Shown here piece after piece: positions 28,287 to 64,000 of a stretch of 64,000 nt of DNA (within the stretch, counting starts at the first letter, position 1; each line of letters starts with the position of its first letter). The translations under genes and the position numbers were made by a program. Location: positions 1 through 64,000 of the forward strand of contig JBLWVX010000003.1 of NCBI GenBank assembly GCA_048268245.1. The letters are read 5' to 3'. The notes under the pieces are model-generated. The model worked only from the letters and a program-made list of their open reading frames with translations. It searched no databases and was not told where the DNA came from. Origin of the DNA: Arcobacteraceae bacterium. GTDB taxonomy: Bacteria; Campylobacterota; Campylobacteria; Campylobacterales; Arcobacteraceae.

Positions 28287-28287
28287 A

Positions 28288-30633: not shown

Positions 30634-30635
30634 TA

Positions 30636-30896: not shown

Positions 30897-30899
30897 ATT

Positions 30900-31304: not shown

Positions 31305-31316
31305 AAAGGAGTATTT

Positions 31317-32347: not shown

Positions 32348-32357
32348 GAAGTTAAAA

Positions 32358-32783: not shown

Positions 32784-33471
32784 ATATATTAGTCCTTTTA
32801 TTGCAGTAGTTTTTTTTACTGCTTGTGCTTCTAATGAACCACAAATAAAGTTTGAGGAACCAAAAGTTCAAATACCAAAGCCTCAACCAAGCCCTAAAAA
32901 AAATAAAGGTTCACTATACTCTATGGAAGGTGCTTCTTTATTTGCTGATAAAAAAGACCTTCAAGTTGGAGATATTATTCAAGTGAATATTGATGAGAAT
33001 TTAACATCTAATACAAATAATAAAAGAGAACTTTCAAATGATAGAAATAGTAGTTTAGGTGGAGGTGTCTTAGCTGGTGCTGGTTTAGGTAGTACAGCCT
33101 CTAAAATTACAGATAAATTTAATAGAAACCTTGGAGTTGATTTTTCAACGCAAAGTACAAACTCTGACTCAGGAGAAGTAAAAACTAGTTTTGCTGAGAG
33201 TTTTTCTACATCAATTTCTGCAATAATTCAACAAACATATCAAAATGGTAACTACTATATTAAGGGTTCAAAAGAGTTATTGATCGATGGACAAAAACAA
33301 GTTATAATAGTTACAGGTGTGATAAGACCATATGATATTAGTTCAGAAAACTCAATTAGCTCAAATCAAATAGCTAATTTAAAACTTATGTATGATAAAG
33401 AAGGTACAGAAGCTGATATTATGGAGACTCCATGGGGAGTAAAACTCATGAGAGCTATATGGCCTTTTTAA
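32776..33471 (+). CDS. flgH: Flagellar L-ring protein FlgH
   Basis: Lipobox FTAC, GSLY, LFADKK..VGDII, NGNY.I.G.K, GVIRPYDI. Confidence 0.95.
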   Translation: MYKYISPFIAVVFFTACASNEPQIKFEEPKVQIPKPQPSPKKNKGSLYSMEGASLFADKKDLQVGDIIQVNIDENLTSNTNNKRELSNDRNSSLGGGVLAGAGLGSTASKITDKFNRNLGVDFSTQSTNSDSGEVKTSFAESFSTSISAIIQQTYQNGNYYIKGSKELLIDGQKQVIIVTGVIRPYDISSENSISSNQIANLKLMYDKEGTEADIMETPWGVKLMRAIWPF

Positions 33472-33527
33472 TCTAACTTTAAGAAATGTAATGCAATAAT
33501 TAGACAATACACTAAAAAGGAGTCTCT

Positions 33528-35438: not shown

Positions 35439-35451
35439 TAAGGAGTAAATT

Positions 35452-36810
35452 ATGGCTGAAGGAATTTTAGGACTAGGAACAGGACAATCTACTGCTTTAA
35501 ATCAAGAGTTAATTGAAAAATTAAAAGCAGCAGAAAGAAGAGCATTAGTTGAGCCTTTAGAAACAAGTTTAGAAGATATAGTAAAAGAAAAAGAGACTTT
35601 TGCTACAATTGATGCAAAAGTAAATGAATTACTTGAAACTATAAAACCTTTTGACCTTTTTGTTACAAGTGGATCAAATGCTTTTGAAGAAAAATCTGCT
35701 ACAACATCAGGAGATTCTGTTGTTTTTAATGCAACTGATTCAAAAAATGTAAATGTTGGTATTACAACAGTAGATGTAAAAGGTTTAGCACAAAAAGATG
35801 TATATCAATCAGACGCTATTAATACAGCTACTAAAGATGCTTTAGGTGATATTGGAGTTTTAACTATTGATGTTGATGGAACAACACACAACTTTGATAC
35901 ATCAACTTATAGAACATATGATGAGTTAGCAACAGCAATAAATGACACAATAGGTATTAACGCTTCTCTAGAACAAGTAGGTGATGATTCATATAGATTA
36001 GTTTTAAAAAGTGAGAGTTCTGGACTTGCAAATGCTCTAACAATTTCTGGTACAGCTAGTCAAGCTTTAGGTTATACAACTGATGGTACAACTATAAATG
36101 CAACAAATCATACACTAATAGCTCAGGATATGAGTTTAGAAGTAGATGGTGTTGCTTATACTTCTGCTGAAAATAAGATTACAGTTGATGGTTTAGATAT
36201 AACTGCAACAAAACTAGGTGTTTCTTCTATTAATGTAACAAAAGATACTTCTTTTATCGAAACACAAATTACAGATTTTATTACAAAATATAATGAACTT
36301 GTAGATTTAGTTGGTACGGAAATAGATAGTGCAGATAGTGCTATTGCTGATAAATCATCATTAAGAACAATGCTTTCTCAAATAAAAGAAAAATTCTTTG
36401 GTGAATACGGTGAGAATTCAGATAAGTCTTTATTTAATTATGGATTTGAGTTAGATAAATCAGGTAAAATATCTTTAGATTTAGTTGCTTTTAATGAAGT
36501 ATTAACTGATAATCCAGATGAACTTAAAGATATATTTGTAGGTACTGCTGCCAAAGAAGGTTTTGGTACACAGTTAAAAGCTACTTTAGATGAATTAAAC
36601 TTTACAGGTGGTTTATTAGATATTTATGAAAAAGGTATAGACTCAAGAGAAAAAACTCTTGAAAAAGAAAAAGAAAAAGCTGTAGAAAAACTAGATGACA
36701 AATATAGTCAGCTAGCAAATCAATTTGCAGCTTATACAGCACTTATTACTCAATTTGAATCGTCTTTCTCAGGTCTAAAAATGATGATTCAACAATCTAC
36801 ATCAAGTTAA
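35452..36810 (+). CDS. fliD: Flagellar filament cap FliD
   Basis: ILGLGTG..LIEKLKAAE, LAQKD, FITKYNEL, C-terminal Y..L..QFAAY. Confidence 0.92.
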   Translation: MAEGILGLGTGQSTALNQELIEKLKAAERRALVEPLETSLEDIVKEKETFATIDAKVNELLETIKPFDLFVTSGSNAFEEKSATTSGDSVVFNATDSKNVNVGITTVDVKGLAQKDVYQSDAINTATKDALGDIGVLTIDVDGTTHNFDTSTYRTYDELATAINDTIGINASLEQVGDDSYRLVLKSESSGLANALTISGTASQALGYTTDGTTINATNHTLIAQDMSLEVDGVAYTSAENKITVDGLDITATKLGVSSINVTKDTSFIETQITDFITKYNELVDLVGTEIDSADSAIADKSSLRTMLSQIKEKFFGEYGENSDKSLFNYGFELDKSGKISLDLVAFNEVLTDNPDELKDIFVGTAAKEGFGTQLKATLDELNFTGGLLDIYEKGIDSREKTLEKEKEKAVEKLDDKYSQLANQFAAYTALITQFESSFSGLKMMIQQSTSS

Positions 36811-36899
36811 TAAAAAGAGAAAATTATTTTTTCTCTTTTTGTTTAAAATTAAGCAAATATATAATATACTTATTACTAGATGAATAACGGAGATACTTT

Positions 36900-37256
36900 A
36901 TGGGATTAGATGTATATAATCAACAAAATGCAGTTTCAGATGACCCTTATGTACTGATACTTAAATTATACGAAGGTATTATTAAATATCTTTCATTTGT
37001 TAAAAATGCAATGGAAGAGGGCGATATTGAAGCAAAGTTTACTTATATAAACAAAACAATTGCTATTTTTGATGAGTTAAGAAATGTACTAGACTTTGAT
37101 GGTGGTGATGTTGCTTATTATTTAGATGGATTATATTTATATCAAATAGAGACACTTTTTTCTGCTGGTATTGACGATAATATAAATGCTGTAAATCAAG
37201 TAATGAAAGTAGCACAAGGGTTAATAGAAGCATGGAAAGAAGAGACAGGTCAATAA
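36900..37256 (+). CDS. fliS: Flagellin chaperone FliS
   Basis: Y.QQN, LILKLYEG, I..EL..LD..GG.VA..L..LY.Y, L.EAW. Confidence 0.92.
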   Translation: MGLDVYNQQNAVSDDPYVLILKLYEGIIKYLSFVKNAMEEGDIEAKFTYINKTIAIFDELRNVLDFDGGDVAYYLDGLYLYQIETLFSAGIDDNINAVNQVMKVAQGLIEAWKEETGQ

Positions 37257-42587: not shown

Positions 42588-43253
42588 CTATTTTAGTTGT
42601 AAGTCTTTATTAAAGTTTGGTGAGTAATTTCCATATAAAATACAATCATTGCAATCTGTTGCAAATAAAATATTGTTTGCAATCATTGAAGTTTTGTATG
42701 CTTGGTCACTTGATTCGTTTACAATTTGAGTAACTACAGCACTAACTAACATACCAATTATACCACCGCCTCCATCTCCAGAAGATTTCACAAATTTAGA
42801 GTTTTTATTCCAAATAGTTTTTCCACTATGTAAATCTACTAATTTAGCTTCTAATTCTATTTCCGTTTTACTAGATAAAACAGTATAGTTATTACCATAT
42901 TTTTTAACATTTATGTAAAGTACAGAATCTGCTCCAAAAATCTCTTTTAATTTTTCTAAAGAAACATTTCTAATTTCTTTTGCTTCATATACTCCATTAT
43001 GTTTAAATGTCTCATTTACTAATGCTGGTGGGAAAACATAATAACCAGCTTCACTTAAAGGCAAAATTGAATTCGCAAGTGTAGCTGAGCTACCTTTTAT
43101 ATCTAAAGATTCATTTGTAGGTAGTACAACTAAAATAGACTTAGGCTTATTTTTAATAAAAGAGCTATAATCATATAATTCTTGATTTTTAGCACAACCT
43201 GACAAAAATATCATCACAGTGATTGAAAATATAATAGTAAAAATATTTTTCAT
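42588..43253 (-). CDS. DUF799-like lipoprotein
   Basis: Lipobox LSGC, PKSILV.LP.NES, PLSEAGYYVFP, FGADSVLY. Confidence 0.8.
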   Translation of the reverse strand: MKNIFTIIFSITVMIFLSGCAKNQELYDYSSFIKNKPKSILVVLPTNESLDIKGSSATLANSILPLSEAGYYVFPPALVNETFKHNGVYEAKEIRNVSLEKLKEIFGADSVLYINVKKYGNNYTVLSSKTEIELEAKLVDLHSGKTIWNKNSKFVKSSGDGGGGIIGMLVSAVVTQIVNESSDQAYKTSMIANNILFATDCNDCILYGNYSPNFNKDLQLK

Positions 43254-43609
43254 TATTTCACGCCTTTATTTTTTAAAAAAGTAATATATTGTTTTGATTC
43301 AGGAAACATTTCTATTTCTTTATTTAAATTCATTATTGATTTAGAATTATTTCCAACTTTAGAATACAAAAGTCCTAATTGTGCATATAACCCTGGAGCA
43401 ATTTTTTTCTTATTTGTATAACTATCTTGTATAATTTTTTCTAAATTAGAGATTTGTGTATTTATATCACCTTCTTCATTTATTGATTCATATACTGAAT
43501 CAATATAGGCTCTATCCCAGTGATAAATGTTTTGCTTGGCTGCACTACCACAACCAGTAAATAAAACTACTGAAATACTTATTATAAAAGTATTAATAAA
43601 GAATTTCAT
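43253..43609 (-). CDS. DUF4810-like small lipoprotein
   Basis: Lipobox FTGC, Y.W..Y, PGLYAQLGLLY, E..FPES. Confidence 0.8.
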   Translation of the reverse strand: MKFFINTFIISISVVLFTGCGSAAKQNIYHWDRAYIDSVYESINEEGDINTQISNLEKIIQDSYTNKKKIAPGLYAQLGLLYSKVGNNSKSIMNLNKEIEMFPESKQYITFLKNKGVK

Positions 43610-43622
43610 TTATAATACCTTC

Positions 43623-44270
43623 TTAGTGAATTTTTTTTGCTAAATTATTTACTGCTTCATTAATTGCTAAACTTAAAACTTTGTCATTTAAAGTCGCATC
43701 ATAACCAGCTGTTCCACCAAAGCCAATAATTTCTCTATTTGATAATGTAAATTCTCCTGCACCTTGAGATGAATATACTACAGCTGTACTATTAACATCA
43801 ATAACATTTAAATTAACTTTTGCATAAGCTACTTGTTTTTTACCTTTTCCAAGTATTCCAAAAAACTGGTGATCTCCCACTGTTTTTCTACCAAATTCTA
43901 CTACATCTCCTGATATAACATATTTAGCACCTTTTATATTTTGATTTACTTTTGAAAAGTTACTTTCTTGTTTTAATGCAGTTAAATTTGTTCTATCAAG
44001 AACTAAAAAATGACCACTTTGTTGTAAACTTGTAGTTAATATTGTTTGAGCTTGATTTCCTAATCTATCTTTTCCATTTGAAAATATACCATTGTTGTAT
44101 GCAGATCTATTATCAAATCTACCAATTGAAATTATCATTTTTTCACCATTATATAGTACTCTTTCGGCTTTATTTTCTGGTACTTTTATAGATTGTGAAC
44201 TTTCTGTTGCACAACCACTAAATAGTGTAATTAAAGCTGTAGTTATTAAAGCAACTTTTAATTTTGACAT
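43623..44270 (-). CDS. CsgG/HfaB family lipoprotein
   Basis: Lipobox FSGC, GRFDNRS, F.VLDR, GDVVEFGRK, YSSQGAGE. Confidence 0.85.
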   Translation of the reverse strand: MSKLKVALITTALITLFSGCATESSQSIKVPENKAERVLYNGEKMIISIGRFDNRSAYNNGIFSNGKDRLGNQAQTILTTSLQQSGHFLVLDRTNLTALKQESNFSKVNQNIKGAKYVISGDVVEFGRKTVGDHQFFGILGKGKKQVAYAKVNLNVIDVNSTAVVYSSQGAGEFTLSNREIIGFGGTAGYDATLNDKVLSLAINEAVNNLAKKIH

Positions 44271-48787: not shown

Positions 48788-49078
48788 CTACTCAATAATC
48801 TTTGGAACTTTAAAGTATCCATCTTCTGACTCAGGAGCATTTTTTAAAATATGATTAGATAACTCTAAATCTTGTTTTGCAACATCTTCTCTTAAAGGTG
48901 TTCCACCTTCAACAGTGCTAAATGTAGCTTCAATTTTTGATACATCAATTTCATTTAAATTTTCAACAAAGTTAATAATATCAGCTAGTTCAGATTTTAA
49001 GTTCTCTTTTCTTGACTCATCAATCTCTAAACTAGAAAGTCTTGATAATTTCTCAATTAGTTTATCATCTACAGTCAT
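48788..49078 (-). CDS. gatC: Asp/Glu-tRNA amidotransferase subunit C
   Basis: LSRLSSL, I..FVE.L.E.D, TPLRED, NAP..DGYFKVPKIIE. Confidence 0.95.
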   Translation of the reverse strand: MTVDDKLIEKLSRLSSLEIDESRKENLKSELADIINFVENLNEIDVSKIEATFSTVEGGTPLREDVAKQDLELSNHILKNAPESEDGYFKVPKIIE

Positions 49079-49300
49079 AGTTTTCCTTATTCTTGTATAT
49101 AAAGGCGATTATATCTAAAAAGAGTTTGTAGAGGCTTTAAAGAGTAGTTATGAAAGATATATAGCTAAAATACAATAATTTTGATGATAATAAATAATAA
49201 AGTTATAAAAGTTATTTATTTAATTGTAAATAATACTTTTATGATACTTTTAAGTAATACTTAAGAATATATGTGTAACAATTACAGTAACGACATATAT

Positions 49301-49374
49301 TAGTGATAGCCAAACTTATCGTGAGGTAGGGACGGAAAGCCACGGATCTTGATGAAGATAGCCGGGTTGCATTC
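49301..49374 (+). ncRNA. c-di-GMP-I (GEMM-I) riboswitch in the 5' leader of the flp/tad operon
   Basis: GCCAAAC-TTATC[GTGA]GGTAG-GGACGGAAAGCC-ACGG-ATCT[TGATGA]AGAT-AGCCGGGTTGC matches the GEMM-I pattern (GNRA-capped P2, GACGNAAAGC, AGCCG.GTT.C); GC-rich island in AT-rich intergenic DNA. Confidence 0.88.
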
Positions 49375-49454
49375 TTATTTATTATTTAATTAAAATTGCA
49401 ATACTGACTACTTAACTAAAATTATTTTATACTTATCAAAACAAGGAGAACAAA

Positions 49455-49649
49455 ATGTTAGATTTCTTAAAAAGAAGATTAAAAAGTGAAAAAGGTGCAA
49501 TGGATAAAATTCTTGTAACTTTATTATTAGTTATTGTTGGTGTTGGAGCAGTTGTTGGTTTAAATACTTGGGTTGATGGTGAAAAAACAAAAGTTGAAAC
49601 AGCAGCTACAAATAAAATCACTGAAGTAACTGGTTCTACTTCTGAGTAG
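49455..49649 (+). CDS. flp: Flp-type major pilin (non-canonical)
   Basis: 64 aa, strong AAGGAG RBS, basic leader ending SEKG, then hydrophobic helix; first gene of the tad locus. Confidence 0.8.
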   Translation: MLDFLKRRLKSEKGAMDKILVTLLLVIVGVGAVVGLNTWVDGEKTKVETAATNKITEVTGSTSE

Positions 49650-49685
49650 TATTAAGTTAAAAGGCTTATGCCTTTTACTTAATAC
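49649..49685 (+). terminator. Stem-loop after pilin gene (partial terminator or mRNA stabiliser)
   Basis: GTATTAAGT-T-AAAAGGC-TTAT-GCCTTTT-ACTTAATAC. Confidence 0.65.
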
Positions 49686-49699
49686 ATGAAAAGACAAAT

Positions 49700-50128
49700 G
49701 TGTTTACAATAATCTTTTATATATTTTCTACAGTTTTATCTTATACTGACTTCAAAAAATACTTAGTACCAAATAATATTTTACTTACTATGGCAATAAT
49801 GCTTTTAATATTTGGCTTTTTTGAATCGAAAATATATATAAGTTCTATTGTTTTATCTTTAGGTGTTCTTCTTTTTTTCATTATTCTTATGCTTATAAAT
49901 AGACAAATGATACTTGGTGGTGGAGATATAAAGTATATGATGCTTGTAGCACTATTTTTAGGACTAAAACCATTTGCTATTTTTTTGATAGTTACAGGTC
50001 TTCTTCAAAGCATAGTTTTATTATTTATGCAAAAAATAAGAAAAAGAAGAGTAGCTGCTATGGTACCAGTTATGTTTGTTTCTGTTATAATAGTAGATAT
50101 ATTAAATTATTTGAATATATTTTTGTAA
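49700..50128 (+). CDS. Prepilin peptidase, A24 family (TadV/CpaA-like)
   Basis: TDFKKYLVPN and GGGDIK aspartate motifs; short, with no methylase domain. Confidence 0.88.
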   Translation: MFTIIFYIFSTVLSYTDFKKYLVPNNILLTMAIMLLIFGFFESKIYISSIVLSLGVLLFFIILMLINRQMILGGGDIKYMMLVALFLGLKPFAIFLIVTGLLQSIVLLFMQKIRKRRVAAMVPVMFVSVIIVDILNYLNIFL

Positions 50129-50164
50129 AGAATATAATCTTCAAAGATAAGGTTAGGAAGAAAT

Positions 50165-51754
50165 ATGACATTAGATGATTTTAAAGATAAACTTGATTCA
50201 AATAAAGAGAATAGTATTTTAAATACGCAAATCCAAGAGGCTTTAGAACTATTTGCTGATCTTGCAAACCTAGATGATATTTCGTATTATAAGTATGAGT
50301 ATGAATATAATAATTTCTTTCATAAATTAACTATTGATAAAGATGGAAATAGACTTGAAGAAAAAAGTCATAATGAACAAAAATACAGAATAACATTGAG
50401 AAAAAATAAACTTGTATATGGATATATATCTATTAATAAGCGAATAAAATCAACTTCTATTGTAAAAAAAATTCTAAATAAACTAATAAAATATCTAGAT
50501 AAGCAAAAAGAATTAGAAAAAAAACTTTTAGGTTCTGATGTATCTTTTAATATATATTTATTTCATGATGATACTTTAGATATGTTTGCCCAAAATCTAA
50601 AAGGTGGACTAGAAGGTCTTTTTAATGTTGATGTAATTGTAGATAATTCAATTGAAAAACATATATCTTCTATTCGAAGTAAAGAGACTAAGCATATAAT
50701 TGTTTATTTAATTGATGATGAAAGAAATATCAAGAAGTATGAATCTGTAATTAAGTCATTAAATGAATTAATAATAGTTTTAGGTCCAAATGACCATAAA
50801 ATATCTATGTATTGTGGGAAACTAGGAATTCAGAACTATATTTCTATAAATGAATTTAAAGCAGAAACAATAAAAGAAATAATTCTAAATACAAGAAATG
50901 AACTTCTAAATAAAAATAAATATGGGAATAAAATTATAGCTTTAAGTGGTATTTCAGGAGGTATAGGAACTACTACTATTGGTATGAATATGTCTGATTT
51001 ACTATCACAAAATTTACCTGATAAGAATATTTTATATATTGATTTATCAACTACAAAAGCTGTTAGCAATCTATTTTTACAAAAAAATCCACTTCCTAAT
51101 AAAACTATTGTTGATTTGATTAATACAAGTGAATTTCACTTGGAAAATAATCTTCAAAATGGTTTATGTAAAGTTCGTGAAAACTTTTATTGTATTACAG
51201 GAATTCAAAAACATATAGATAAAGAGTACATAGAAAAAGATGTATTTATTAGTAAACTTTTAGAGTATGTATCAAATTCAAGTGATTATTTTAATTTTAT
51301 AATTATAGATTTAGGTTTAGCAGATGCTTCAAATCTAAAGACAACTATATATGATATTGTAAATGAAATCTGGCTTTTAACAGAAATGAATCTTCCTCAT
51401 ATTTCAAAAGTAAAAACATTTTATTCTTTAATGAAAAGAGCAGGGTTAAAGGAGAAAATATCTTTTATTGTAAACAGATATGATTCTCAAAATGCAATTT
51501 CAGTGAATGATGTAACTTCAATTTTAAATATGACAAGTGGGGACAAAATACAATTTGATAATTATAAAATCCCAAATGATTATAAAACTTTAGGTAAATG
51601 TTGGAATTACTGTGAGTTAGCAAGTGTAAGTGATAAAGACTCACTATTTATAGAGAAACTTGAAGATATTTTGAAGAAAAAAGAGTTTTATCAAAGTGAA
51701 GATAAAAAAAGAAAAGAAGGATTCTTTTCATCTTTATTTAAAAAGAGTAAATAA
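50165..51754 (+). CDS. TadZ/CpaE-like MinD/ParA-family pilus localisation protein with long N-terminal extension
   Basis: Degenerate Walker A SGGIGTTT, YIDL, FIIIDLG, IVNRYD, IPND. Confidence 0.8.
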   Translation: MTLDDFKDKLDSNKENSILNTQIQEALELFADLANLDDISYYKYEYEYNNFFHKLTIDKDGNRLEEKSHNEQKYRITLRKNKLVYGYISINKRIKSTSIVKKILNKLIKYLDKQKELEKKLLGSDVSFNIYLFHDDTLDMFAQNLKGGLEGLFNVDVIVDNSIEKHISSIRSKETKHIIVYLIDDERNIKKYESVIKSLNELIIVLGPNDHKISMYCGKLGIQNYISINEFKAETIKEIILNTRNELLNKNKYGNKIIALSGISGGIGTTTIGMNMSDLLSQNLPDKNILYIDLSTTKAVSNLFLQKNPLPNKTIVDLINTSEFHLENNLQNGLCKVRENFYCITGIQKHIDKEYIEKDVFISKLLEYVSNSSDYFNFIIIDLGLADASNLKTTIYDIVNEIWLLTEMNLPHISKVKTFYSLMKRAGLKEKISFIVNRYDSQNAISVNDVTSILNMTSGDKIQFDNYKIPNDYKTLGKCWNYCELASVSDKDSLFIEKLEDILKKKEFYQSEDKKRKEGFFSSLFKKSK

Positions 51755-53355
51755 TGAGAAGTTTAAGAGATTTAATTGAAGATCAAGAAAAAAATAGCAT
51801 TAGTTTAGATGATAATGTTGTTGAAGAATCTACAGAAGAAGACTCTATTCTAAAAGAGACAAAAGAAAAAATCACTAAGATAAAAAAACAAGCAGTAAAT
51901 TCTTTATTACAGTTTCCTGATATTTATACAAACAAAGAGTTATATGATTTAGCTTTACGAATAAATGATAGTTTTATGATGAACTTAAAATCTGATCAGA
52001 AGATTACAGAAGAGAATCTTGAAGAAGTATTACCTGATTATATTCAATCTTATAACAAAGAAACTAGAACTTTATCTAAAGAGTATTTAGAAGATATAAA
52101 ACAAATGATTATAAATAATATTGTAGGTTATGGTCATATATCTACAATATTTGACATTGCTAAAGATGGATTAAATGATGTAATTATAAATACAAAAGAT
52201 TATGTAGATATTATTTATAAAGGTAAAACAGAACAAACCCCTTTTACTTTTAGAAGTGAAGAAGAGCTTAGAAAAATTATAGATAAAATGCTTGCTGAAA
52301 ACAATAGAAAAATTGATGAAGCACATCCTATTATTTCAAGTAAATTAAATGATGGTTCAAGGGTAGAAGTTCAAATCCCACCAATTGCTGCAAACGGTGG
52401 AAGTTGTGTGACAATTAGAAAATTCAATGAAATACCACTTTTATTAGAAATGCTAATTGATGCAGGTCAGATGGATATGAAAATGGCATATTTTCTAGTA
52501 AAAGTTTCAAAAGGAAAATGTAATATTATTGTATCTGGTGGTACATCAAGTGGTAAAACAACTTTCTTAAATGCAATGACAAGGTTTGTTGATGGAAATG
52601 AACAACTTATGGTTATTGAAGATACAAAAGAGATGCAACCTCAAATGCCTTGCCATTCAATTAGGTCTTATGAATCAAGAATGGCAAACGAAGAGGGTAA
52701 AGGTGCTATTCCTTTAGAGTATCTTTTAAGATCAGCTCTAAGATCAAGTCCAAGAAGGATTATTGTAGGTGAGTGTAGAGGACCTGAGATTGTAACAATG
52801 TTAAATGCTATGAATACAGGTCACCCAGGTTCTATGACAACTGTTCATGCAGATAGTACAAAAGAAGCTCTTGTTAGAATTGAAAATATGTACTTAGAAG
52901 CCAGACCAAGTGCTAATATTAATTTTATTAGAACTCAAATTGTTTCAGCAGTTGATTTAATCATTCAGTTAGTTAGATTTCCAGATGGTACTAGAAAATT
53001 AGTTGCTATTTCAGAGATTGAGCGAAGAATGGAAGATAATGGAGTTGTATCTTTAAATAATATCTTTGAATTTAAAAGAGATACAAGTGATCTTAAAAAA
53101 ACAAAAGGAGAGTTTCAAACTCTATCAACTCCTACTAGAACAATAGATCAAATGAATATGTTTGGTGTAGATATTGATAAAAGAGTGTTTGATCCAAATT
53201 TTGAGATGCCTAAATCAATGCTTATCGAAGCACTTGAAACAGATTTACCATCAGTTATGTGTGGTTGGAAGGATGAGTTCCTGAAAGTGTTTATTGAAAG
53301 AGATCCTCAGCTTTTTCATAAATGGCCACATTTTTTAAAGATGAAAGAAGAGTAA
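51754..53355 (+). CDS. tadA: TadA/CpaF pilus assembly ATPase
   Basis: DGSRV, TIRKF, SGGTSSGKTT, IEDTKE, RIIVGECRG.E, AMNTGHPGSMTTVHA, RFPDGTRK. Confidence 0.93.
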   Translation: MRSLRDLIEDQEKNSISLDDNVVEESTEEDSILKETKEKITKIKKQAVNSLLQFPDIYTNKELYDLALRINDSFMMNLKSDQKITEENLEEVLPDYIQSYNKETRTLSKEYLEDIKQMIINNIVGYGHISTIFDIAKDGLNDVIINTKDYVDIIYKGKTEQTPFTFRSEEELRKIIDKMLAENNRKIDEAHPIISSKLNDGSRVEVQIPPIAANGGSCVTIRKFNEIPLLLEMLIDAGQMDMKMAYFLVKVSKGKCNIIVSGGTSSGKTTFLNAMTRFVDGNEQLMVIEDTKEMQPQMPCHSIRSYESRMANEEGKGAIPLEYLLRSALRSSPRRIIVGECRGPEIVTMLNAMNTGHPGSMTTVHADSTKEALVRIENMYLEARPSANINFIRTQIVSAVDLIIQLVRFPDGTRKLVAISEIERRMEDNGVVSLNNIFEFKRDTSDLKKTKGEFQTLSTPTRTIDQMNMFGVDIDKRVFDPNFEMPKSMLIEALETDLPSVMCGWKDEFLKVFIERDPQLFHKWPHFLKMKEE

Positions 53356-53358
53356 ATT

Positions 53359-54285
53359 ATGAGTAATTTAGTTCTATTTTTTATCATAGTAATTCCTATA
53401 CTATTTATAAGTTTTGCTTTTTATTTATACTCATTTTATGTGAAAATGAATCAGCAAAAAGTGATAATAAATACTTTAGTAAATACAAATAGTAAAATCC
53501 TAGATAATAATAGAAATGATAATGTATTCGAAGATGATACAAATTTTTTAAGAAAGAAACTTAGATTTGCAGGCTTCTCTACTCAAGGTGCTGAGTATGT
53601 TTTTTTACTTATTTGTATTGGTTTTGGACTTTTAACAAGCTTTTTTATTTTTTTAATAGCAAGTTCTAAGATCATATTTGTATGTACATTTTTTATATTT
53701 ATGGGCTTTCCTTATTTGGTTTTAGTAAATATTATAAAAGCTAGACAAGAAGAGTTTAACTTTGCATTAAAAGAGATTATTGATAAAGTTACTAGTATGA
53801 TGAGAAGTGGTGTAGGTTTTGAGCAAGCTTTAAAAAAATCAATCCTTACTTCAAAATCAAAACTTGCACAAAAAGTTCTAGGTATTTATATAAATGAAAA
53901 ATCAGTTATAGGTGAAGATAAATGTTTTGAGAAGATGTTTAAACTTATTGAGTCTAAAGAACTTAGAATTTTTTATCTTACAATTTCAATTGGTAGAAAA
54001 TCAGGTGGTAAGTTTTCAAATACTTTAGAAAAACTAAGAAAAACACTACATGACCAAGGGGAAATAAAACAAGAAATTACATCTTCAACAAAAGAGATAA
54101 AAGTGGGTACTTATATGATTATAGGGCTTATTATTTTTACATATATTATGATGAATAGTGCATTAAATGATTCTTTAAATGCTCACTTTTTTGGTAGTGA
54201 TACAGGTAAAATCCAAATGTTTTTTATTATTGTTTGGATTTCTTTTGGACTATTTGTAAATAGCTTATTAACAAAGATAAAATGA
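53359..54285 (+). CDS. tadB: TadB-like inner-membrane platform protein
   Basis: T2SS-F fold pattern MRSG..FEQAL, SGGK..L; follows tadA. Confidence 0.85.
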   Translation: MSNLVLFFIIVIPILFISFAFYLYSFYVKMNQQKVIINTLVNTNSKILDNNRNDNVFEDDTNFLRKKLRFAGFSTQGAEYVFLLICIGFGLLTSFFIFLIASSKIIFVCTFFIFMGFPYLVLVNIIKARQEEFNFALKEIIDKVTSMMRSGVGFEQALKKSILTSKSKLAQKVLGIYINEKSVIGEDKCFEKMFKLIESKELRIFYLTISIGRKSGGKFSNTLEKLRKTLHDQGEIKQEITSSTKEIKVGTYMIIGLIIFTYIMMNSALNDSLNAHFFGSDTGKIQMFFIIVWISFGLFVNSLLTKIK

Positions 54286-55127
54286 TGGATAAAACACTTA
54301 TTGTATTTATACTAGCACCAATGTTAATAGCAGTAGCCATAATTGCAACAGTGCTAATACTTCAGAGAAAGAAACAGCAAAGAAATATTGTACTTCTTTC
54401 AAAGTTAGATAATAAAGCAATTATAGAAGAGCAAAAAAAAGGCGAAAATAAAAGTAATGATAGTTTGAATATGCAATTAATTCAAGCAGGAATTACTTAT
54501 AAAGAGTATACAGAAGCAAGACTTCTTTTTGCTTTGATTGGAATAATTATAATGGGAGTTCTACCATTTTTCTTCTCTTTTATAGTTGGAGTAATTAGTG
54601 TAATTGTAGGTATTTTATGTATTGCATTTGGAGGAAAGTTTTATTTATCAATTGCAAAGGCAGAGAGAATTGAAAAAATTGATAAAGATTTAGGGATTTT
54701 TCTTGATTTAGTAAATGTAATTCTTGAAGCAGGAGGAAGTTTAAAAAATGCCTTTTTTGAAGTTTCTAAAAGAGCCCATGGAATTATTGATGAAGAGTTA
54801 CTAAAAGAAATCTCTATTTTAGAGTACGAAATGACAAATTACTCTACAAAAGTAGCCTATGAAAATCTTAAAAATAGGGTCGATAGTAGACAACTTGATA
54901 AAATAGTGGATTTTTTGATACTTAGTGAAGAGACAGGTATTGGAGTAAAAAACATTTTTACAATGCAATCAGATGAAATGAGAAAAGAAAAGTTCTATAA
55001 AATAAAAGGGAAGGTTAATACTTTAAATATGTATTTGATGCTGATTATTTTCCTTTTTGTTTTACCAGCATTTGGAGCATTTATTGTTTTCCCTATTATG
55101 GGTGGAACACTAACAATTGGAATATAA
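54282..55127 (+). CDS. tadC: TadC-like inner-membrane platform protein
   Basis: FLDL..LEAG.SL..AF, SEETG, C-terminal IIFLFVLP; overlaps tadB stop. Confidence 0.85.
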   Translation: MMDKTLIVFILAPMLIAVAIIATVLILQRKKQQRNIVLLSKLDNKAIIEEQKKGENKSNDSLNMQLIQAGITYKEYTEARLLFALIGIIIMGVLPFFFSFIVGVISVIVGILCIAFGGKFYLSIAKAERIEKIDKDLGIFLDLVNVILEAGGSLKNAFFEVSKRAHGIIDEELLKEISILEYEMTNYSTKVAYENLKNRVDSRQLDKIVDFLILSEETGIGVKNIFTMQSDEMRKEKFYKIKGKVNTLNMYLMLIIFLFVLPAFGAFIVFPIMGGTLTIGI

Positions 55128-55145
55128 ATTTAATAAGGATTTTAC

Positions 55146-56351
55146 ATGCAAGCTAACAAACAAATAATTATAATACTAATACTAGCCTCGCTACTATTTT
55201 CAGCACTTGGGGCTGCTTTTTATTTTTTTAAAAAGAATAAACAAGCCCAAAAGAGTAATAATGAACTTGTCACAATTTATATTGCAAAAGCTGATATAAA
55301 AAAAGGAACATTAATTACTGTAGATCAAATGGCCCAAACTAAAATAGCAAAACAATTCTTATTAAATAAACCATTGATGAAAAAAGAGATTATTGGAAAA
55401 TATACTAGTGAAAAAATCTTTAAAAATGAGATGTTCTTAAAACAAAAACTATCAACACAAATTGAGAAAGAAAGAGCTAAAGTTCTTGATTTTACTAGCA
55501 GTAGTTACAACATGAAGTTTGATATGTTTGATAACCCCAATTATACTTTAGTTCAAGGGGATTTTATAAATATCATATCTGTTCTTCCAAAGGGAAAACC
55601 TGATAATAAAGGTAAATATTCAGATTTTGATGTTCAATATATAGCAAATAATATTAAAGTTTTAGGATTTATTAAAGATGGTGTAAATGAGTCTTCAAGT
55701 ATTACAAAAGAAAAAATTAAAAAAGTAATAAAGAAAAAAGTTGTAGAAGAAATAGTAAATATAAAAGCAAATGAAATGATACTTGATATAGATCCAAATG
55801 TTTTGATTTCACTTATTAAAGATTATAATAAAGGAAATCAATTATGGATGGTAAAAACTAAAGAGTCTATTCAGATTAAACCACTTGATGAAATGACAAA
55901 AGAAGAAACAAAAGAGTTTAAAAAAGAAATAAAAGAACCTTTATCAAAAGAAAATAAAAAAGTAAAAAAAGTATATAAGCCAAAGGTTTATAAGTACCAA
56001 TGGTATAAATCAAAGGTTAATACTATTACTAAAAGTGCAGTAATTGATTATACAAATGATAAAGGTGATAGTAAAACTAAAAAAAGAAGTGTAGAAATAA
56101 AAGTTGATTCACAAAGGATATGTAACTCTATAAAAGATAAGTTTATTATAGGAACATCTGCAAGGTTTTATATAAGAAATGAGCCAACAACTAGATCAAG
56201 TAAAAAAAGTATCTTAGAAAAAAATACAATTATTCCTTATGTTGAAAAATTAGACACTTGGTATAGGACTTGTGATGGACAGTTTGTAAGTTCAAAAGTT
56301 GCAAATGAGATTTCATATTCAAATGCAGTAAAAAAAGCAGGTAAAAGATGA
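55146..56351 (+). CDS. RcpC/CpaB-like SAF-domain protein with C-terminal SH3-like domain
   Basis: TM, SAF pattern IYIAKADIKKGTLIT..IIGKY..I.KNE, LVQGDFINI, NIKVLG; C-terminal IRNEPTTRS..WY...G.FVS. Confidence 0.75.
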   Translation: MQANKQIIIILILASLLFSALGAAFYFFKKNKQAQKSNNELVTIYIAKADIKKGTLITVDQMAQTKIAKQFLLNKPLMKKEIIGKYTSEKIFKNEMFLKQKLSTQIEKERAKVLDFTSSSYNMKFDMFDNPNYTLVQGDFINIISVLPKGKPDNKGKYSDFDVQYIANNIKVLGFIKDGVNESSSITKEKIKKVIKKKVVEEIVNIKANEMILDIDPNVLISLIKDYNKGNQLWMVKTKESIQIKPLDEMTKEETKEFKKEIKEPLSKENKKVKKVYKPKVYKYQWYKSKVNTITKSAVIDYTNDKGDSKTKKRSVEIKVDSQRICNSIKDKFIIGTSARFYIRNEPTTRSSKKSILEKNTIIPYVEKLDTWYRTCDGQFVSSKVANEISYSNAVKKAGKR

Positions 56352-56791
56352 AAAATCAAACAGTAAAAAATAAACCTAATTTAAAAGATGCTGTAGTAGA
56401 GCAAATCATTTTATGGATTGTTATATTTATATCTTTTGTAAGTATTTTATTTTTTATTATTGATTATTCAAATGCACTAAAAGCTAGTGAAAATGCAGAT
56501 TCAATTGCTAATTACACAGCAAGAATGGTAGCACTAAATGAATCGGAAAGTGATATTGCTGATGGTATTAATAGAATAAAAGGTGATTATGTACAAGCAG
56601 TTACAACAGCTGGTATTTCTTGTACAGAAGATACAACTGATGCAAGTAGACAAGTAATAGTAAATGTATCTGGAACACTACCAAATAATATTATTCTAAC
56701 AGGAAGTAATAATATAAACTCAAAAGCAGTAGTTTATAATGAAAGTAGTGAATATAAAAAAGAGTGTAGTATAGCACTTAGCTTTAACTAG
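56348..56791 (+). CDS. TadE/TadF-like minor pilin
   Basis: N-terminal AVVEQ plus hydrophobic helix, A...AR..A motif, two Cys; inside the tad operon. Confidence 0.65.
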   Translation: MKNQTVKNKPNLKDAVVEQIILWIVIFISFVSILFFIIDYSNALKASENADSIANYTARMVALNESESDIADGINRIKGDYVQAVTTAGISCTEDTTDASRQVIVNVSGTLPNNIILTGSNNINSKAVVYNESSEYKKECSIALSFN

Positions 56792-56800
56792 GAGAGAGTT

Positions 56801-58283
56801 ATGAAAGTAGTATTAAAAAGTTTATTTATTTTATGTATATTTTTAAGTATAGGAAATACAAATGAGCTTATAAGTAAAAATTTACATGATAAAAACATAT
56901 CCGTAAGCAAAGGTTCATTTAAAGTCTTTGAGTTTAAAAAGATGATTAAGAATATAAAAGTAAGTGATGAGTCTATGATAGATGTAGACTTTTTAGAAAA
57001 TAGTGAAAAGCCTTTGCAGGCTATAAAAGTGTTTACTAAAAAACTTGGAAATGGAAATATCCTAGTTACTTTCTATGACTCAAGTTCATTACATATAAAT
57101 ATAAATATCACTGAAAATTTAAATACTATAGTTGAAGTTGCAAATATAATAAGTCCTAAGTTAAAAGTAAAACAAACTAATGGAAAAGTAATCTTAAGTG
57201 GAAGTGTAAAGAATCAAAAACAAAAAGATAAGATTTTAGACTTATTTAAAAAAGCAGGTGTGAATCTAGAGACTGATTTAGTTGATTTAGCTACACTTGA
57301 AAATCCAGATAAGATGGTAAGAATCAAGCTTTATGCAGTTGAAGTAAATAATGATAAAGGGCTTACAATAAAGAATAATTGGTTTAGTTCAGGTAAGAAC
57401 TATATTCAAAATATTAATGATGAAGGACTTTATTATAATACTCCTTTGGATTATTCTGGAAGTACTCAAGAATATAGCGATGCAAATAATCAAAGAAATA
57501 TTTTAGTACATGATGCAATTGATAATCTTATGAAAGATGCAGTATCTCTAACAGGTGGATTAACTGGTGCTGCTAATGTATTAGGTAAATATTTTAATGT
57601 AGGAGTTACTTTAAACTACTTATCTTCAAAAGGTGTAGCTGAGGTTTTAGATGAAACAACACTTTTAACATTAGAAAACCAAGAAGCAGATTTTTTAGCA
57701 GGTGGAACTTTAAATATAAGAACACAAACTACAACTTCTCAAGGTGTACCATCAACTGAATTAAAAGAGATAAAGTATGGTTTACAACTTAATATAAAAG
57801 CTAAAAATATTGTAGATGATAAGTTTATAAAACTAAATATTGTTACAAAATCAAGTAGTGCAGATTTTGCAAATACAGTAGATGGAATCCCAAATATTAC
57901 AGAGAAATCAATCACTACAAATGTAGTAGTAGCAAATAAATCTACTATTGTTTTAGGTGGTTTAATAAATAGAAAAAATGCAAGTGATATAGAAAAAATA
58001 CCATTACTTGGGGATATTCCAGTATTAGGGTTTCTATTTACAAGTAAAGCTTTTAAAGAAGGGAAAAGTGAGCTAGTGTTTTTTATTACACCTGAAATAG
58101 TTGATCCAAAAGCAAACAACCAACAGCAAGAGTTCTTACAAAAAACAACATTTACAAAAGCCATAGATGAAAAATTTGAAAATGATAAAAAAGAAGTAGA
58201 GAAAGAAAAAAATAAAAGTTTTAATAAAAAAGAAGACTCACAAAGCTTACATGAGCAAAGAGTAAAAGAGATTTTAGGATATT

Positions 58284-58285
<2 letters not shown>
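56801..58285 (+). CDS. RcpA/CpaC secretin
   Basis: Signal peptide, pilus-N domain, BON-like LSGSV, FLAGG, YGLQL, IVLGGL, KIPLLGDIPVLGFLF, ELVFFITP. Confidence 0.9.
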
Positions 58286-59434
<1,149 letters not shown>

Positions 59435-61468: not shown

Positions 61469-63106
61469 ATGGAAACAAATTACAGTAAAAATAAGCTATT
61501 TAAAAAAGTATATGTTCTTCTTTTTTTAGGAATCACATTGATTACTATTATTTTTGCTGCAATTGGAGTGTCTTTACAGAAAAAAGCAGTTTTAGAACTT
61601 ATGCAGTCAGAAGCTAAAAGTTTAGCTCAATCTATTACTTTTGTAATCTCTAAATCTTTGTTAATTGATGATGATTCATCAATTATTGATTTTAATAAAC
61701 AATACATAAAAAAAGCAGATAAAGTTAAAAATATAATAATTTCAAAATCAAATGGAAAAGATTACTTTATAATTAGAAAAGAGTCTTGGGAACATAGACA
61801 AAATATTAGTGAAACCTTTACAAATATGCAAAAGAATATACCTACAAACTCTATGATTTATTCAGCATTTTTAAATGAAGAAGTTTTTCATTATGTATAT
61901 CCTATGCAAATATCAGGAATTACATGGGGTTGGCTTCATATTAGTTTAGATTTAAAGAAATATTATGAAAAGTTAGAACATCTTTATGCTCAATATTTAG
62001 TACTGTTTTTATCTTTTACATTTTTAGCTTTTGTAATTTCTTTTTATATAGCTAGAACTTTTGTTAGACCTATTGTAGAACTTAATAAAACAGTATCTCA
62101 AGTAAGCTCTGATAATTTAGATGTTATAAAAGTTGATAATGTTAGTAATGATGAGGTAGGAGAGTTAACGAAAGCTTTTAACTCGATGATTTCACAGTTA
62201 AGTATCTCTCAAAAAAGTCTTAAAAAATACCAAGCAGATTTAGAAAAAAGAGTACAAGAAAGAACAGCTGATTTAGAAAAAGCAAACAAAAGTTTAAATG
62301 AAAAATCAGAACAACTAGAAGAGTTAAATAGAAACCTTGATACAAAAGTAAAAAAAGAGATTGAGAAAAGAAAAGAGCAAGAAGAAATGCTTTTACAGCA
62401 ATCAAGACTTGCTGCAATGGGTGAAATGGTAGGAAATATTGCTCACCAATGGAGACAACCTTTAAATGCTTTAGGAATTATTATTCAAAATATTGATTTA
62501 TCTTATAAAATAGGTAAATTAAATGAAGAGTTTATGAAAAAATCAATTGATGAGTCTTTAGATTTAACTACTATGATGTCAAAAACTATTGATGATTTTA
62601 GAAATTTCTTTATACCAAATAAGAAAAAAGAGAATTTTTTACTTCATGAGAGTTTAAATAGCTCATTAGAGTTAATTGGTTCTACATTTAAAAACTATAA
62701 TATTAGTGTGAAAAGAGATATTGACAAAGGCTTAGAGGTTTTTGGTTTTCCAAATGAGTTTGCTCAAGCTTTACTAAATATTTTGTCAAATGCAAAAGAT
62801 GCTTTAATCGAAAAAAGAGTTGCTAAACCTGAAGTTTGTGTGAAGCTAAAAAAATATGAAGACATAGGAAAAATATTTATAAGTGATAATGCTGGTGGAA
62901 TAGATGATGAAGTAATGCTTAAAATATTTGAACCATATTTCACTACAAAAGAGCAAGGGAAAGGTACAGGAATTGGTCTTTATATGTCAAAAATGATTAT
63001 TGAACAAAATATGAAAGGTAAAATTTATGCTAGAAATATAGATAATGGTGTAAGTTTTATAATTGAAATACCTTTAAAACAAAAAGATGAAGGAAAAACT
63101 ATTTAA
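61469..63106 (+). CDS. HAMP-domain sensor histidine kinase
   Basis: Two TMs, HAMP (RPI..L..DEVGEL..AFN.M), AHQWRQPL, DNAGGI, FEPYFTTK, GTGIGL. Confidence 0.92.
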   Translation: METNYSKNKLFKKVYVLLFLGITLITIIFAAIGVSLQKKAVLELMQSEAKSLAQSITFVISKSLLIDDDSSIIDFNKQYIKKADKVKNIIISKSNGKDYFIIRKESWEHRQNISETFTNMQKNIPTNSMIYSAFLNEEVFHYVYPMQISGITWGWLHISLDLKKYYEKLEHLYAQYLVLFLSFTFLAFVISFYIARTFVRPIVELNKTVSQVSSDNLDVIKVDNVSNDEVGELTKAFNSMISQLSISQKSLKKYQADLEKRVQERTADLEKANKSLNEKSEQLEELNRNLDTKVKKEIEKRKEQEEMLLQQSRLAAMGEMVGNIAHQWRQPLNALGIIIQNIDLSYKIGKLNEEFMKKSIDESLDLTTMMSKTIDDFRNFFIPNKKKENFLLHESLNSSLELIGSTFKNYNISVKRDIDKGLEVFGFPNEFAQALLNILSNAKDALIEKRVAKPEVCVKLKKYEDIGKIFISDNAGGIDDEVMLKIFEPYFTTKEQGKGTGIGLYMSKMIIEQNMKGKIYARNIDNGVSFIIEIPLKQKDEGKTI

Positions 63107-64000
63107 TTAGTTTTACTGTATCTTTTGTTTTAGTTCCTATAATTTTTAGTTGAAATTCAAATTGATCATAATCACCATTAATTTTTTTATATGTTGTACT
63201 TGGATTTGCTAAAAGTTCAACTTCTATGAATTTATTAATCAATAGATTATCAGCTGTACTTCCACACTCAAATAGTGCCATGTGCATTCTCGCACCTGTT
63301 AAATCGTAAGAGTTTTCTAAATTTTTAAAAGATTGACTTATTTGTTTTGGGTCATTATTTTGTTCCTTTGTTAAAGAATCAACCATAGGAACACAAAAGT
63401 CATTATATATATCTGTATCTAAAACCGACTGATCATTTCTTATAAAACCATCATCAGTATAAAAATATTTTATATCATTTTTAAAGTGTGACCAATTTGA
63501 ATTCCCTGATGCGGTACAAGCATTTCCTAAATCAACTCCATAAAATTCATCATAATCTGTATCTGTATATCCTCTATGACCACTTAAATTAAATGTTATT
63601 ATATTGCCTTTAAATAAATGTGAATTATCACATCCATTTATTCCAAATGGTGATAAGTCTGATGTCTCTGTTAAGTCTGCTATTATTGCTACAGAGCTTG
63701 TACTTAAATCAAAGCTTGCTAAATCAAGGAATTTATACCAAAAAGTTTCATGTGTGTAATTTGGAAGTGAAACTGTTACTGTATAAGGGTCAGATATAAA
63801 ATCCCAAGTATATGTGATTTCATCTTTTATTTGTGCACCTAATGGAGTTTGAGCTAGTATATCATTTGCAATAGTTTCAGCATTAGTTGTATCCATATCA
63901 ACATCAATATAGTACTTTGCAGCACTTAATGCAGCATTATCTGTTAAAGCTTTAAGCTTATAATATTTATTTCTAGCTTCAATATCATCTAGTATAGTCG
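63099..64000 (-). CDS. TadG-like pilus-associated protein (5' end outside window)
   Basis: The frame stays open beyond the ORF-track start (63896) to the window edge: TILDDIEARNKYYKLKALTDNAALSAAKYY..., containing the Tad N-terminal L...D.AAL.AA motif. Confidence 0.7.
   Translation of the reverse strand, partial: TILDDIEARNKYYKLKALTDNAALSAAKYYIDVDMDTTNAETIANDILAQTPLGAQIKDEITYTWDFISDPYTVTVSLPNYTHETFWYKFLDLASFDLSTSSVAIIADLTETSDLSPFGINGCDNSHLFKGNIITFNLSGHRGYTDTDYDEFYGVDLGNACTASGNSNWSHFKNDIKYFYTDDGFIRNDQSVLDTDIYNDFCVPMVDSLTKEQNNDPKQISQSFKNLENSYDLTGARMHMALFECGSTADNLLINKFIEVELLANPSTTYKKINGDYDQFEFQLKIIGTKTKDTVKLIK

Follow-up and report, generated by a model that had tools for sequence, protein, structure and literature searches.

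A predicted cyclic di-GMP riboswitch at the head of a divergent Tad pilus gene cluster in an Arcobacteraceae bacterium

Can a second messenger act directly, through the leader of an RNA, on the genes of an attachment pilus in a relative of Arcobacter? The question is raised by a stretch of 64,000 nucleotides (nt) from an Arcobacteraceae bacterium (assembly GCA_048268245.1, contig JBLWVX010000003.1, positions 1 to 64,000; hereafter the window), where a riboswitch of the class I type for cyclic dimeric GMP (c-di-GMP) stands ahead of a short pilin gene and a set of genes for a Tad pilus machinery. The pairing of the aptamer with Tad genes is real but expected, and the Tad cluster itself is divergent. 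The points of interest are a so far unannotated pilin family with a divergent motif, an expression platform that has no terminator, and an aptamer that has been gained and lost patchily among related operons. We lean, with modest confidence, towards a mechanism in which a c-di-GMP-ON switch precedes the pilin and the Tad machinery of an attachment pilus.

Window positions 49299-49374 of the forward strand match the Rfam covariance model RF01051 (c-di-GMP-I) over positions 1-87 of 87 with 58.1 bits (E 9.1e-09), against a gathering score of 35 bits, and RF01051 is the sole Rfam family to reach its gathering threshold across the 64-kb window. The first-pass annotation of this DNA had placed a riboswitch at 49301, two nucleotides inside the match, and the search with the Rfam model that it proposed agrees with it over the entire model. 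G49309 aligns to model position 11, the unpaired G immediately 5' of the first helix; A49336 aligns to position 38, the first A past the GACGG junction; and C49370 aligns to position 83, the first C past the last helix. From the consensus and the numbering of the Vc2 riboswitch, we take these three positions to be the equivalents of G20, A47 and C92. The column of G20 holds G in 29 of the 29 aligned aptamers of Arcobacteraceae, and homologous aptamers score 74-93 bits with a covariance model of our own (R1). The helices are intact in the window copy, and its one departure, A49346 in place of the G of the other copies, makes an A-U Watson-Crick pair out of a G-U pair. G20 binds the ligand's G-alpha and C92 pairs with G-beta, while switches for cyclic GMP-AMP (cGAMP) have A at position 20 (PMC6140456; here and below, statements taken from cited papers refer to the accessible portions of their text). 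Because the equivalents of G20, A47 and C92 are kept and G20 is invariant throughout the family, the predicted ligand is c-di-GMP and not cGAMP, the choice already made in the first-pass annotation on the base at 49309, and we regard this prediction as well founded.

The surroundings of the aptamer are those of a leader. A promoter-like motif, TTAAG...TGTGTAACAAT, of the extended -10 type (TGn followed by AACAAT), predicts a transcription start near 49289-49291, and it recurs at equal distance 5' of the aptamer in 9 of the 9 other leaders inspected. The end of the aptamer and the pilin ATG are separated by 80 nt. A metatranscriptome contig of 179 nt from a salt marsh, identical to the window, covers 49309-49487 and thereby reaches from the aptamer into the pilin open reading frame (ORF), and contigs of relatives from two other RNA-library studies connect the aptamer with the pilin start. 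These contigs fit co-transcription of aptamer and pilin and cannot prove it. Among the public RNA runs, all kept as contigs, none from this organism was found, the best word share being 0.23. Adapter-like letters stand directly 5' of 49308-49310 in contigs of two RNA libraries from different studies, and could reflect frequent ends of RNA or fragments within the 5' tail of the aptamer. The leaders of L049 (genome G076), L083 and L041 (genome G132) are longer, at 176-233 nt, and between riboswitch and ribosome site have another element like an extended -10, TGTTATAAT or TGGTACAAT; in these variants the pilin may have an additional promoter independent of the riboswitch.

At the 3' end of the aptamer, folds of the window and its homologues point to an alternative, "anti-aptamer" hairpin. 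Its strands are UAG.CGG.GUUGCA (49359-49371, including C49370) and UGCAAU.CUG.CUA (49397-49410). Among 17 distinct leaders with riboswitch and pilin, the last nucleotides of the aptamer, GUUGCA with the ligand-pairing C, are able to pair with a downstream UGCAAY in 12. In an alignment of these 12 leaders the 6-bp (base pair) core of the hairpin is paired in 70 of 72 cells, with two compensatory changes, from G-C to A-U in G127 and from C-G to U-A in G005; 5 of 500 shuffles equal this count, and controls with slid positions reach at most 65.5%. We take the covariation as moderate evidence for the alternative hairpin. The equivalent stem of G093 and G109 is long, uses the 3' strand of the aptamer and is followed by a run of U. 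The 191-nt leader of the window as a whole folds no more stably than its shuffles (z = 0.16). A pairing of the 5' flank with the A/U-rich loop (P1), present in the constrained folds of the window and of G003, shows no co-variation and was not used.

These elements suggest the following course of events. From the promoter near 49261-49282, a transcript would begin with a leader of about 165 nt containing the class I aptamer, in whose 3' strand C49370 would base-pair one guanine of the ligand. The strand 49359-49371 would have two mutually exclusive partners, the aptamer itself or the conserved arm 49397-49410. With c-di-GMP bound, the strand would be locked inside the aptamer; without ligand, the alternative hairpin would form and the binding pocket would be destroyed. 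By analogy with the pilM switch of Geobacter, the alternative fold would be the OFF state, and high c-di-GMP would raise expression of the pilin gene. Partial read-through of a hairpin behind the pilin gene would then yield more peptidase, TadZ, TadA, TadB, TadC, CpaB-like protein, TadE-like protein and secretin, and the genes would together build a pilus of type IVc (Tad) for attachment. Ligand binding, pilus assembly and adhesion we infer from sequence. As to polarity, an ON switch seems to us somewhat favoured, because the alternative fold resembles that of the published GEMM-I ON switch of pilM, in which terminator fold and aptamer exclude each other and the ligand-pairing C is taken up by the terminator (PMC9262584). 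As to the output of the OFF fold, we can only guess at termination that is weak or depends on Rho, or at decay of the RNA, since neither a U-tract nor masking of the ribosome site is visible.

The gene that the switch would reach first encodes a protein with a predicted mature form of 50 amino acids. All 41 aligned sequences of the family have the same residues G14, A15, M16, D17 and K18, which gives the motif G/AMDK(I/L) at the predicted processing site; the canonical motif of Flp pilins is G/xxxxEY (Pfam Flp_Fap), with Glu at +5 and Tyr at +6. The size of the protein, its basic leader ending in G and its hydrophobic helix are compatible with a type IVc pilin; the earlier label "flp" needs correction in that the family profiles do not recognise the protein. 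Homologues fill 373 clusters of a large protein collection, a Pfam domain is recorded in 0 of the 120 listed, and NCBI labels them "hypothetical protein". Right behind the pilin stop codon lies a strong stem-loop. A stable hairpin, of a different sequence each time, follows the pilin gene in 11 of 13 loci folded (a count made without a shuffle control), and those of L080, L079 and L054 have canonical U-tracts. Its probable role is that of an attenuator or of a stabiliser, by which the amount of pilin relative to machinery would be set. Because it stands after the pilin stop codon, the riboswitch probably gates the pilin most directly, with the machinery genes depending on read-through. The first-pass annotation had put the whole system under the riboswitch; the aptamer does head the co-oriented block, and the claim is narrowed by this hairpin and by a separate TadG-like gene with a promoter-like motif of its own.

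A number of observations weigh against the proposed mechanism. The 12 leaders with the alternative hairpin were picked because the hairpin is visible in them, and its structure was derived from those same sequences; taken alone, the hairpin of each leader is barely above chance (shuffle p 0.014-0.17), and the best stem excludes the ligand-pairing C in 4 of the 17 leaders (G093, G132, L079 and L083). A canonical leader terminator was rejected, the terminator scan of 49000-50300 giving 0 sites, in line with the first-pass statement that no clear one is visible in the 80-nt gap, and the hairpin of the window has no U-tract. Masking of the ribosome site was rejected as well: in 11 leaders folded with either the aptamer or the hairpin enforced, the unpaired probability of the region from the Shine-Dalgarno sequence to the AUG does not change consistently. 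The ligand-bound state brings no gain in access in these 11 leaders; the hairpin state gives the higher access, by a margin above 0.05, in 5 of them, and the two states lie within 0.05 of each other in the remaining 6, the window giving 0.55 for the bound and 0.53 for the hairpin state. L079 has a free-standing terminator able to coexist with the aptamer. The RNA-library contigs carry no information on strand, level or ends, nor do the stretches that they leave uncovered, and DNA is possibly included among them. On the side of the proteins, Glu at +5 and Tyr at +6 are absent from all 41 pilin sequences, Pfam and NCBIfam profiles do not recognise the pilin (no Flp match even at E up to 10), and the assignments of TadZ, CpaB and TadE are weak.

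The same body of evidence bears on other explanations of the locus. GEMM-I aptamers of the two specificities are nearly identical and some are bispecific (PMC6140456), and decayed aptamers exist in this very operon family, clearly so in L081 and marginally in L085; the copy in the window might accordingly sense another cyclic dinucleotide, such as 3'3'-cGAMP, or be an inactive relic in this genome. We consider this very improbable, given G at the position of G20 in all 29 aptamers, the retention of A47 and C92 in a 58.1-bit match with intact helices where A49346 restores a Watson-Crick pair, and the signalling background of 39 GGDEF matches in the genome. A switch of the opposite sign, with c-di-GMP lowering pilin expression and the pilus belonging to a motile or exploring state of low c-di-GMP, appears unlikely. 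It would agree with the Tad pili of Caulobacter, which act on swarmer cells before c-di-GMP rises, with the ribosome site being equally or more accessible in the ligand-free hairpin state, where this access is in no leader lower by more than 0.05, and with L079, whose canonical terminator just 3' of the aptamer and not overlapping it reproduces the layout of the OFF switch Cd1 (PMC9262584). It fits less well with the alternative hairpin, which sequesters the ligand-pairing C and the entire 3' strand as in the ON switch of pilM (PMC9262584), or with the long stems of G093 and G109, formed on the 3' strand of the aptamer and followed by a U-run in the ON layout, and the window shows no aptamer-compatible structure able to end transcription or to mask the ribosome site.

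Even with an ON switch, its reach may be narrower than we propose. The riboswitch might effectively gate the pilin alone, with the machinery from 49700 onwards read mainly from a promoter of its own and the TadG-like gene certainly separate, and we entertain this tentatively as a minority view. The hairpin of -19 kcal/mol between pilin and peptidase and its counterparts in 11 of 13 loci, several with U-tracts, lend it substance, as does the TadG-like gene at 63099-64070 with its own promoter-like motif. Promoter-like sites at 49686-49713 and 50111-50138 would also suit it, but a promoter scan finds 9 sites where 9.6 are expected by chance, which leaves these sites without weight. The hairpin of the window has no U-tail, the genes from peptidase to secretin overlap or stand no more than 36 nt apart, and pilin, peptidase and machinery follow in this order in every one of the 33 named loci whose sequence covers the 5' end. 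We retain the reading of a c-di-GMP-ON switch that acts first on the pilin and, by read-through, on the machinery (Table 1).

Table 1. Features of the riboswitch-Tad locus, with positions in the window
Feature	Position	Strand	Basis or remark
gatC	48788-49078	-	
Promoter-like motif	49261..49282	+	sequence reading
c-di-GMP-I (GEMM-I) aptamer	49299..49374	+	RF01051 full length; G49309, A49336 and C49370 as presumed equivalents of G20, A47 and C92
Alternative "anti-aptamer" hairpin (candidate)	49359..49410	+	folds of window and homologues
Shine-Dalgarno AGGAG (49444-49448) and pilin ATG (49455-49457)	49444..49457	+	sequence; conserved in all leaders listed
Major pilin, Flp-like but non-canonical, 64 amino acids (aa) (predicted)	49455..49649	+	ORF; 14-aa basic leader ending in G, AMDK, hydrophobic helix
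Strong stem-loop right after pilin stop codon	49649..49685	+	fold of 49647-49700, -19.0 kcal/mol; no U-tail
Prepilin peptidase, short TadV/CpaA type, 142 aa, GTG start	49700..50128	+	Peptidase_A24 50.7 bits (cut-off 26.5)
TadZ/CpaE-like ParA/MinD-family protein, 529 aa (weak)	50165..51754	+	AAA_31 25.1 bits (below cut-off 27); weak CBP_BcsQ and CbiA
TadA/CpaF secretion ATPase, 533 aa	51754..53355	+	T2SSE 153 bits; Walker A, GE.R and His-box motifs
TadB-like platform protein	53359..54285	+	T2SSF 33.0 bits (cut-off 25.2)
TadC-like platform protein	54282..55127	+	T2SSF 33.2 bits (cut-off 25.2)
CpaB/RcpC-like periplasmic protein, 401 aa (weak)	55146..56351	+	TIGR03177 pilus_cpaB 25.8 bits (cut-off 71); SAF 17.9 bits (cut-off 21)
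TadE-like pseudopilin candidate, 147 aa	56348..56791	+	no Pfam or NCBIfam match; protein-atlas lead
Outer-membrane secretin (RcpA/CpaC role), N-terminal BON-like domain	56801..58285	+	Secretin 137 bits, BON 25 bits
tgt	58295-59428	-	
TadG-like gene, 323 aa, cut by window end (candidate)	63099..64000 (whole G000:C3:63099-64070)	-	promoter-like TTTAGAAAAT...TGCTATAAT

Nine co-oriented ORFs, which overlap or are separated by no more than 50 nt, make up the block between a divergent gatC and a convergent tgt. The gene order proposed in the first-pass annotation between these borders is borne out by profile matches for the peptidase, TadA, TadB, TadC and the secretin, and on these matches the assignments of the peptidase, the ATPase, the two T2SSF proteins and the secretin are secure. 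The peptidase has D17 and D76, the latter in GGGD; the two Asp of TadV/CpaA-type prepilin peptidases are catalytic. TadA scores 231 bits with TIGR03819, below the equivalog cut-off of 373. Its best relative of solved structure is CpaF of the Caulobacter Tad pilus with 239 bits, while archaeal GspE/FlaI reaches 110 and VirB11 88, and its place in the TadA/CpaF clade is secure by these comparisons. The secretin matches PilQ (74 bits), GspD (71 bits) and RcpA (8odn, 68.7 bits) in the PDB to a similar degree, values that do not separate the subtype. For TadZ, RcpC and a TadE-like protein, which the annotation had also named, position and order agree; the profile matches of the first two fall below cut-off, and the 147-aa ORF has no family match. 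TadZ/CpaE is a Tad-specific marker in TXSScan. The protein in its place here has a deviant P-loop, GISGGIGTTT, is kept before TadA in all loci, and finds weak ParA/MinD matches only among solved structures (26 and 23 bits). The CpaB-like gene has a conserved position across loci. For the 147-aa ORF, the nearest named clusters of a protein atlas built on a language model have PF07811 TadE (score 0.93, 170 shared features), which is a lead only. The additional Pfam domains that appear under lenient thresholds for the pilin, the 147-aa ORF and the CpaB- and TadZ-like proteins (MacB_PCD, TPR_21, Pho86, DUF6377 and SH3_3) are at chance level and were rejected.

The TadG-like gene stands apart from the block in this genome. 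In other genera a 347-aa gene lies between the peptidase and tadZ, and it is 52% identical to the copy at 63099-64070; the interval between peptidase and tadZ holds no such gene here. The protein has no Pfam match in hmmscan, while 25 of its 30 named atlas matches have PF13400 (Tad), with a top score of 0.96, again a language-model lead. The motif upstream of this gene, TTTAGAAAAT-N-TGCTATAAT, is of the same type as the one ahead of the pilin in riboswitch-less Tad operons of the Halarcobacter type (L108:1272-1459), and may mark a shared promoter or regulator site.

The order seen in the window is shared by many of its relatives. A TadA orthologue of at least 68% identity is present in 32 of the 121 family genomes sampled. 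Riboswitch, pilin and peptidase follow one another in 5 of 5 TadA-bearing genomes of the genus of the window and in 9 of the 27 from other genera; seven of these nine have the riboswitch on the TadA contig, 3.4-4.2 kb 5' of TadA, and two have it directly ahead of the pilin at the end of a contig. Near TadA in the other 18 genomes, some of whose assemblies are fragmented, no riboswitch was found. Among 55 named loci, 33 include the 5' side of the pilin (the leader of L065 reads N). The R1 model, used for the aptamer search in leaders, catches L083, which a regex pattern had missed; 8 of the named loci have a clear aptamer by this model, at 74-93 bits, L085 is marginal at 14.2 bits, and three further named loci extend the set. 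Once duplicates are removed, the arrangement is retained in 17 distinct leaders, which come from 7 or more genera of Arcobacteraceae. The closest locus is that of Arcobacter sp. YIC-464, with 95% TadA identity; others belong to Poseidonibacter, Aliarcobacter and Halarcobacter, and metagenome-assembled genomes (MAGs) of Sulfurospirillum and Sulfurimonas have orthologous clusters that are more distant.

Across these operons the aptamer is present in some and absent from others. A TadA tree was built from 38 rows, the window and the 37 of 55 loci with a near-complete TadA and a known pilin position. Its nine riboswitch-bearing rows fall into two well-supported clades, intermixed with riboswitch-less rows, and the pattern calls for 4 changes, of which strongly supported branches force at least 3. 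By this tree, the aptamer is patchily distributed before orthologous operons of Arcobacteraceae, with at least three gains or losses. One case is offered by L081, sister to the riboswitch-bearing L079 (support 100/100). L081 keeps only the 3' half of the aptamer with a diverged core, and a 7-nt deletion and a mutated U-tract have deprived it of the terminator hairpin that L079 has behind its aptamer. L081 loses both the aptamer core and the terminator, and therefore the aptamer and the downstream hairpin appear to evolve as one unit. A "relic" aptamer in L085 is marginal, the R1 match being its one item of evidence. Four riboswitch-less loci of Aliarcobacter keep the same promoter-like motif as the window, TTAAGT...TGTCATAAT, directly ahead of the ribosome site, and loci of the Halarcobacter type have a different one, TTTAGAAAA...TGCTATAAT. 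Other RNA families were sought in the riboswitch-less leaders of L059 and L085 and rejected, the snoRNA and miRNA matches being at chance level and below gathering scores. In L059 (1100-1430), from a Poseidonibacter MAG, an orthologous pilin lies behind a different, structured-looking leader that has no Rfam match.

The aptamer also occurs in other settings. The assembly of this genome (2.68 Mb, 57 contigs) contains two copies of RF01051, the second at G000:C5:32577-32654 on the reverse strand (locus L001) with 62.8 bits. About 100 nt 3' of it lies a conserved ORF of 40 codons for a small hydrophobic peptide, kept in all four members of the genus that have this second copy (L001, L012, L014 and L015). 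In other Arcobacteraceae genera the riboswitch stands ahead of other small membrane-anchored proteins of 55-81 aa (L007-L009, L011, L013, L017 and L021). These small proteins look like families of riboswitch-gated mini-proteins.

How does the locus compare with systems already described? With Vc2 of Vibrio cholerae, the type example of RF01051, it shares the two-hairpin architecture and the equivalents of G20, A47 and C92; it differs in a shortened second hairpin, with 11 model positions deleted, and in its host among the Campylobacterota. The platform here has neither a canonical terminator nor a mask over the ribosome site. In Clostridioides difficile, Bordeleau et al. reportedly described in 2015 a c-di-GMP-II riboswitch before pilA1, tested experimentally and found to be an ON switch; other cases of this kind are not known to have been tested. 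That case resembles the present one in that the leader of a major pilin gene contains a c-di-GMP riboswitch, and differs from it in the class of the riboswitch (II there, I here), the type of pilus and the Gram-positive host. The machinery resembles the Cpa system of Caulobacter, Tad of Aggregatibacter and Rcp/Tad of Pseudomonas in its CpaF-type ATPase, TadB/C pair, short A24 peptidase and secretin, and further in a weakly assigned ParA-like protein in the place of TadZ, the candidate CpaB-, TadE- and TadG-like proteins and a predicted mature pilin of about 50 aa. It differs from the Flp pilins in the invariant G/AMDK and the lack of Glu+5 and Tyr+6, and from known Tad systems in that profiles fail to recognise the pilin and the TadE- and TadG-like proteins and that TadZ, at about 529 aa, has a long N-terminal part without a family match; nor was a lipoprotein of the TadD type seen among the genes of the block. 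Closest in its logic is the GEMM-Ib switch of pilM in Geobacter metallireducens, with exclusive folds, capture of the ligand-pairing C and downstream genes for type IV filaments; that switch responds to cGAMP, with A at the position of G20 and a true terminator (PMC9262584), whereas here there is a G, a Tad-type pilus and no U-tract.

The novelty of the locus had been rated too highly in the first-pass annotation. Table 2 of Weinberg et al. (2007) includes cpaA, pulF, hofQ and pilQ among the families that GEMM appears to regulate, and since GEMM was listed there with families of the cpaA type, the pairing of riboswitch and Tad was already known bioinformatically (PMC1950547). In the accessible text of that paper the list names no case from Epsilonproteobacteria or Campylobacterota and comes with no analysis of platform or distribution (PMC1950547). 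The accompanying statement that no characterised Tad pilus of Campylobacterota is known agrees with our literature search, which found no characterising paper, subscription journals and supplements lying outside it. In the literature found, the only mention of Tad in this phylum is a genomic one, in the accessible text on a Sulfurospirillum epibiont (PMC10470745). Searches on Arcobacter with Tad, Flp or tight adherence gave nothing on this system; a search on Arcobacter with riboswitch and c-di-GMP gave one paper, whose accessible text does not treat the element; and a search on c-di-GMP riboswitches with Tad or Flp pili gave accessible texts that name no riboswitch-gated pilus apart from the class II pilA1 case of C. 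difficile.

The window also holds a gene for a GGDEF protein (3521-5986), one for an EAL protein (21326-22513) and flagellar genes (27168-37256), which the first-pass annotation had joined with the pilus into a motile-to-sessile switch. The link is one of proximity alone, over distances of 12-45 kb from the riboswitch, in a genome with 39 GGDEF matches. Such a module is a reasonable general picture of c-di-GMP signalling and not a finding about the window. Adjoining the EAL gene are two tandem pairs of ammonium transporter and P-II genes (22637-26127, forward strand), and the flagellar cluster includes, at 29437-31811 and 32358-32783 on the forward strand, four ORFs (398, 134, 164 and 141 aa) without a Pfam match at E up to 1e-5. 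Elsewhere in the window are an arsenic-resistance operon with ArsR, a GGACT-domain protein, ArsB, a low-molecular-weight phosphatase of the ArsC type, ArsD and ArsA (6112-10655, forward strand), a GlnD-like uridylyltransferase (14911-17448), and a trio of genes for CsgG-like, DUF4810 and GNA1162-like lipoproteins, a conserved outer-membrane module (42588-44270, reverse strand).

Taken at its boldest, the locus would represent a Tad lineage of the Campylobacterota's own, in which Asp3-Lys4 of the pilin replaces Glu5/Tyr6, the switch works with neither a terminator nor a ribosome-site mask by a minimal hairpin that captures the ligand-pairing cytosine, with output through Rho or RNA decay, and the aptamer has repeatedly been inserted or lost between one promoter and one ribosome site. 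We think this combination improbable as a whole; if it is true, close species would provide a natural series in which one pilus occurs both with and without c-di-GMP gating. The general knowledge of c-di-GMP riboswitches and of Tad pili is unchanged by the locus. Its meaning lies with the organisms that carry it. The habitats of Arcobacter and its relatives are sewage, sediments, shellfish and animals; some of these bacteria are emerging pathogens, and their attachment is poorly known. For them the locus provides a concrete and testable candidate for an attachment organelle with direct second-messenger input, built on a pilin family that is now labelled "hypothetical protein", and the sister genomes with intact and with decayed aptamers constitute a natural experiment on the gain and loss of riboswitch control.

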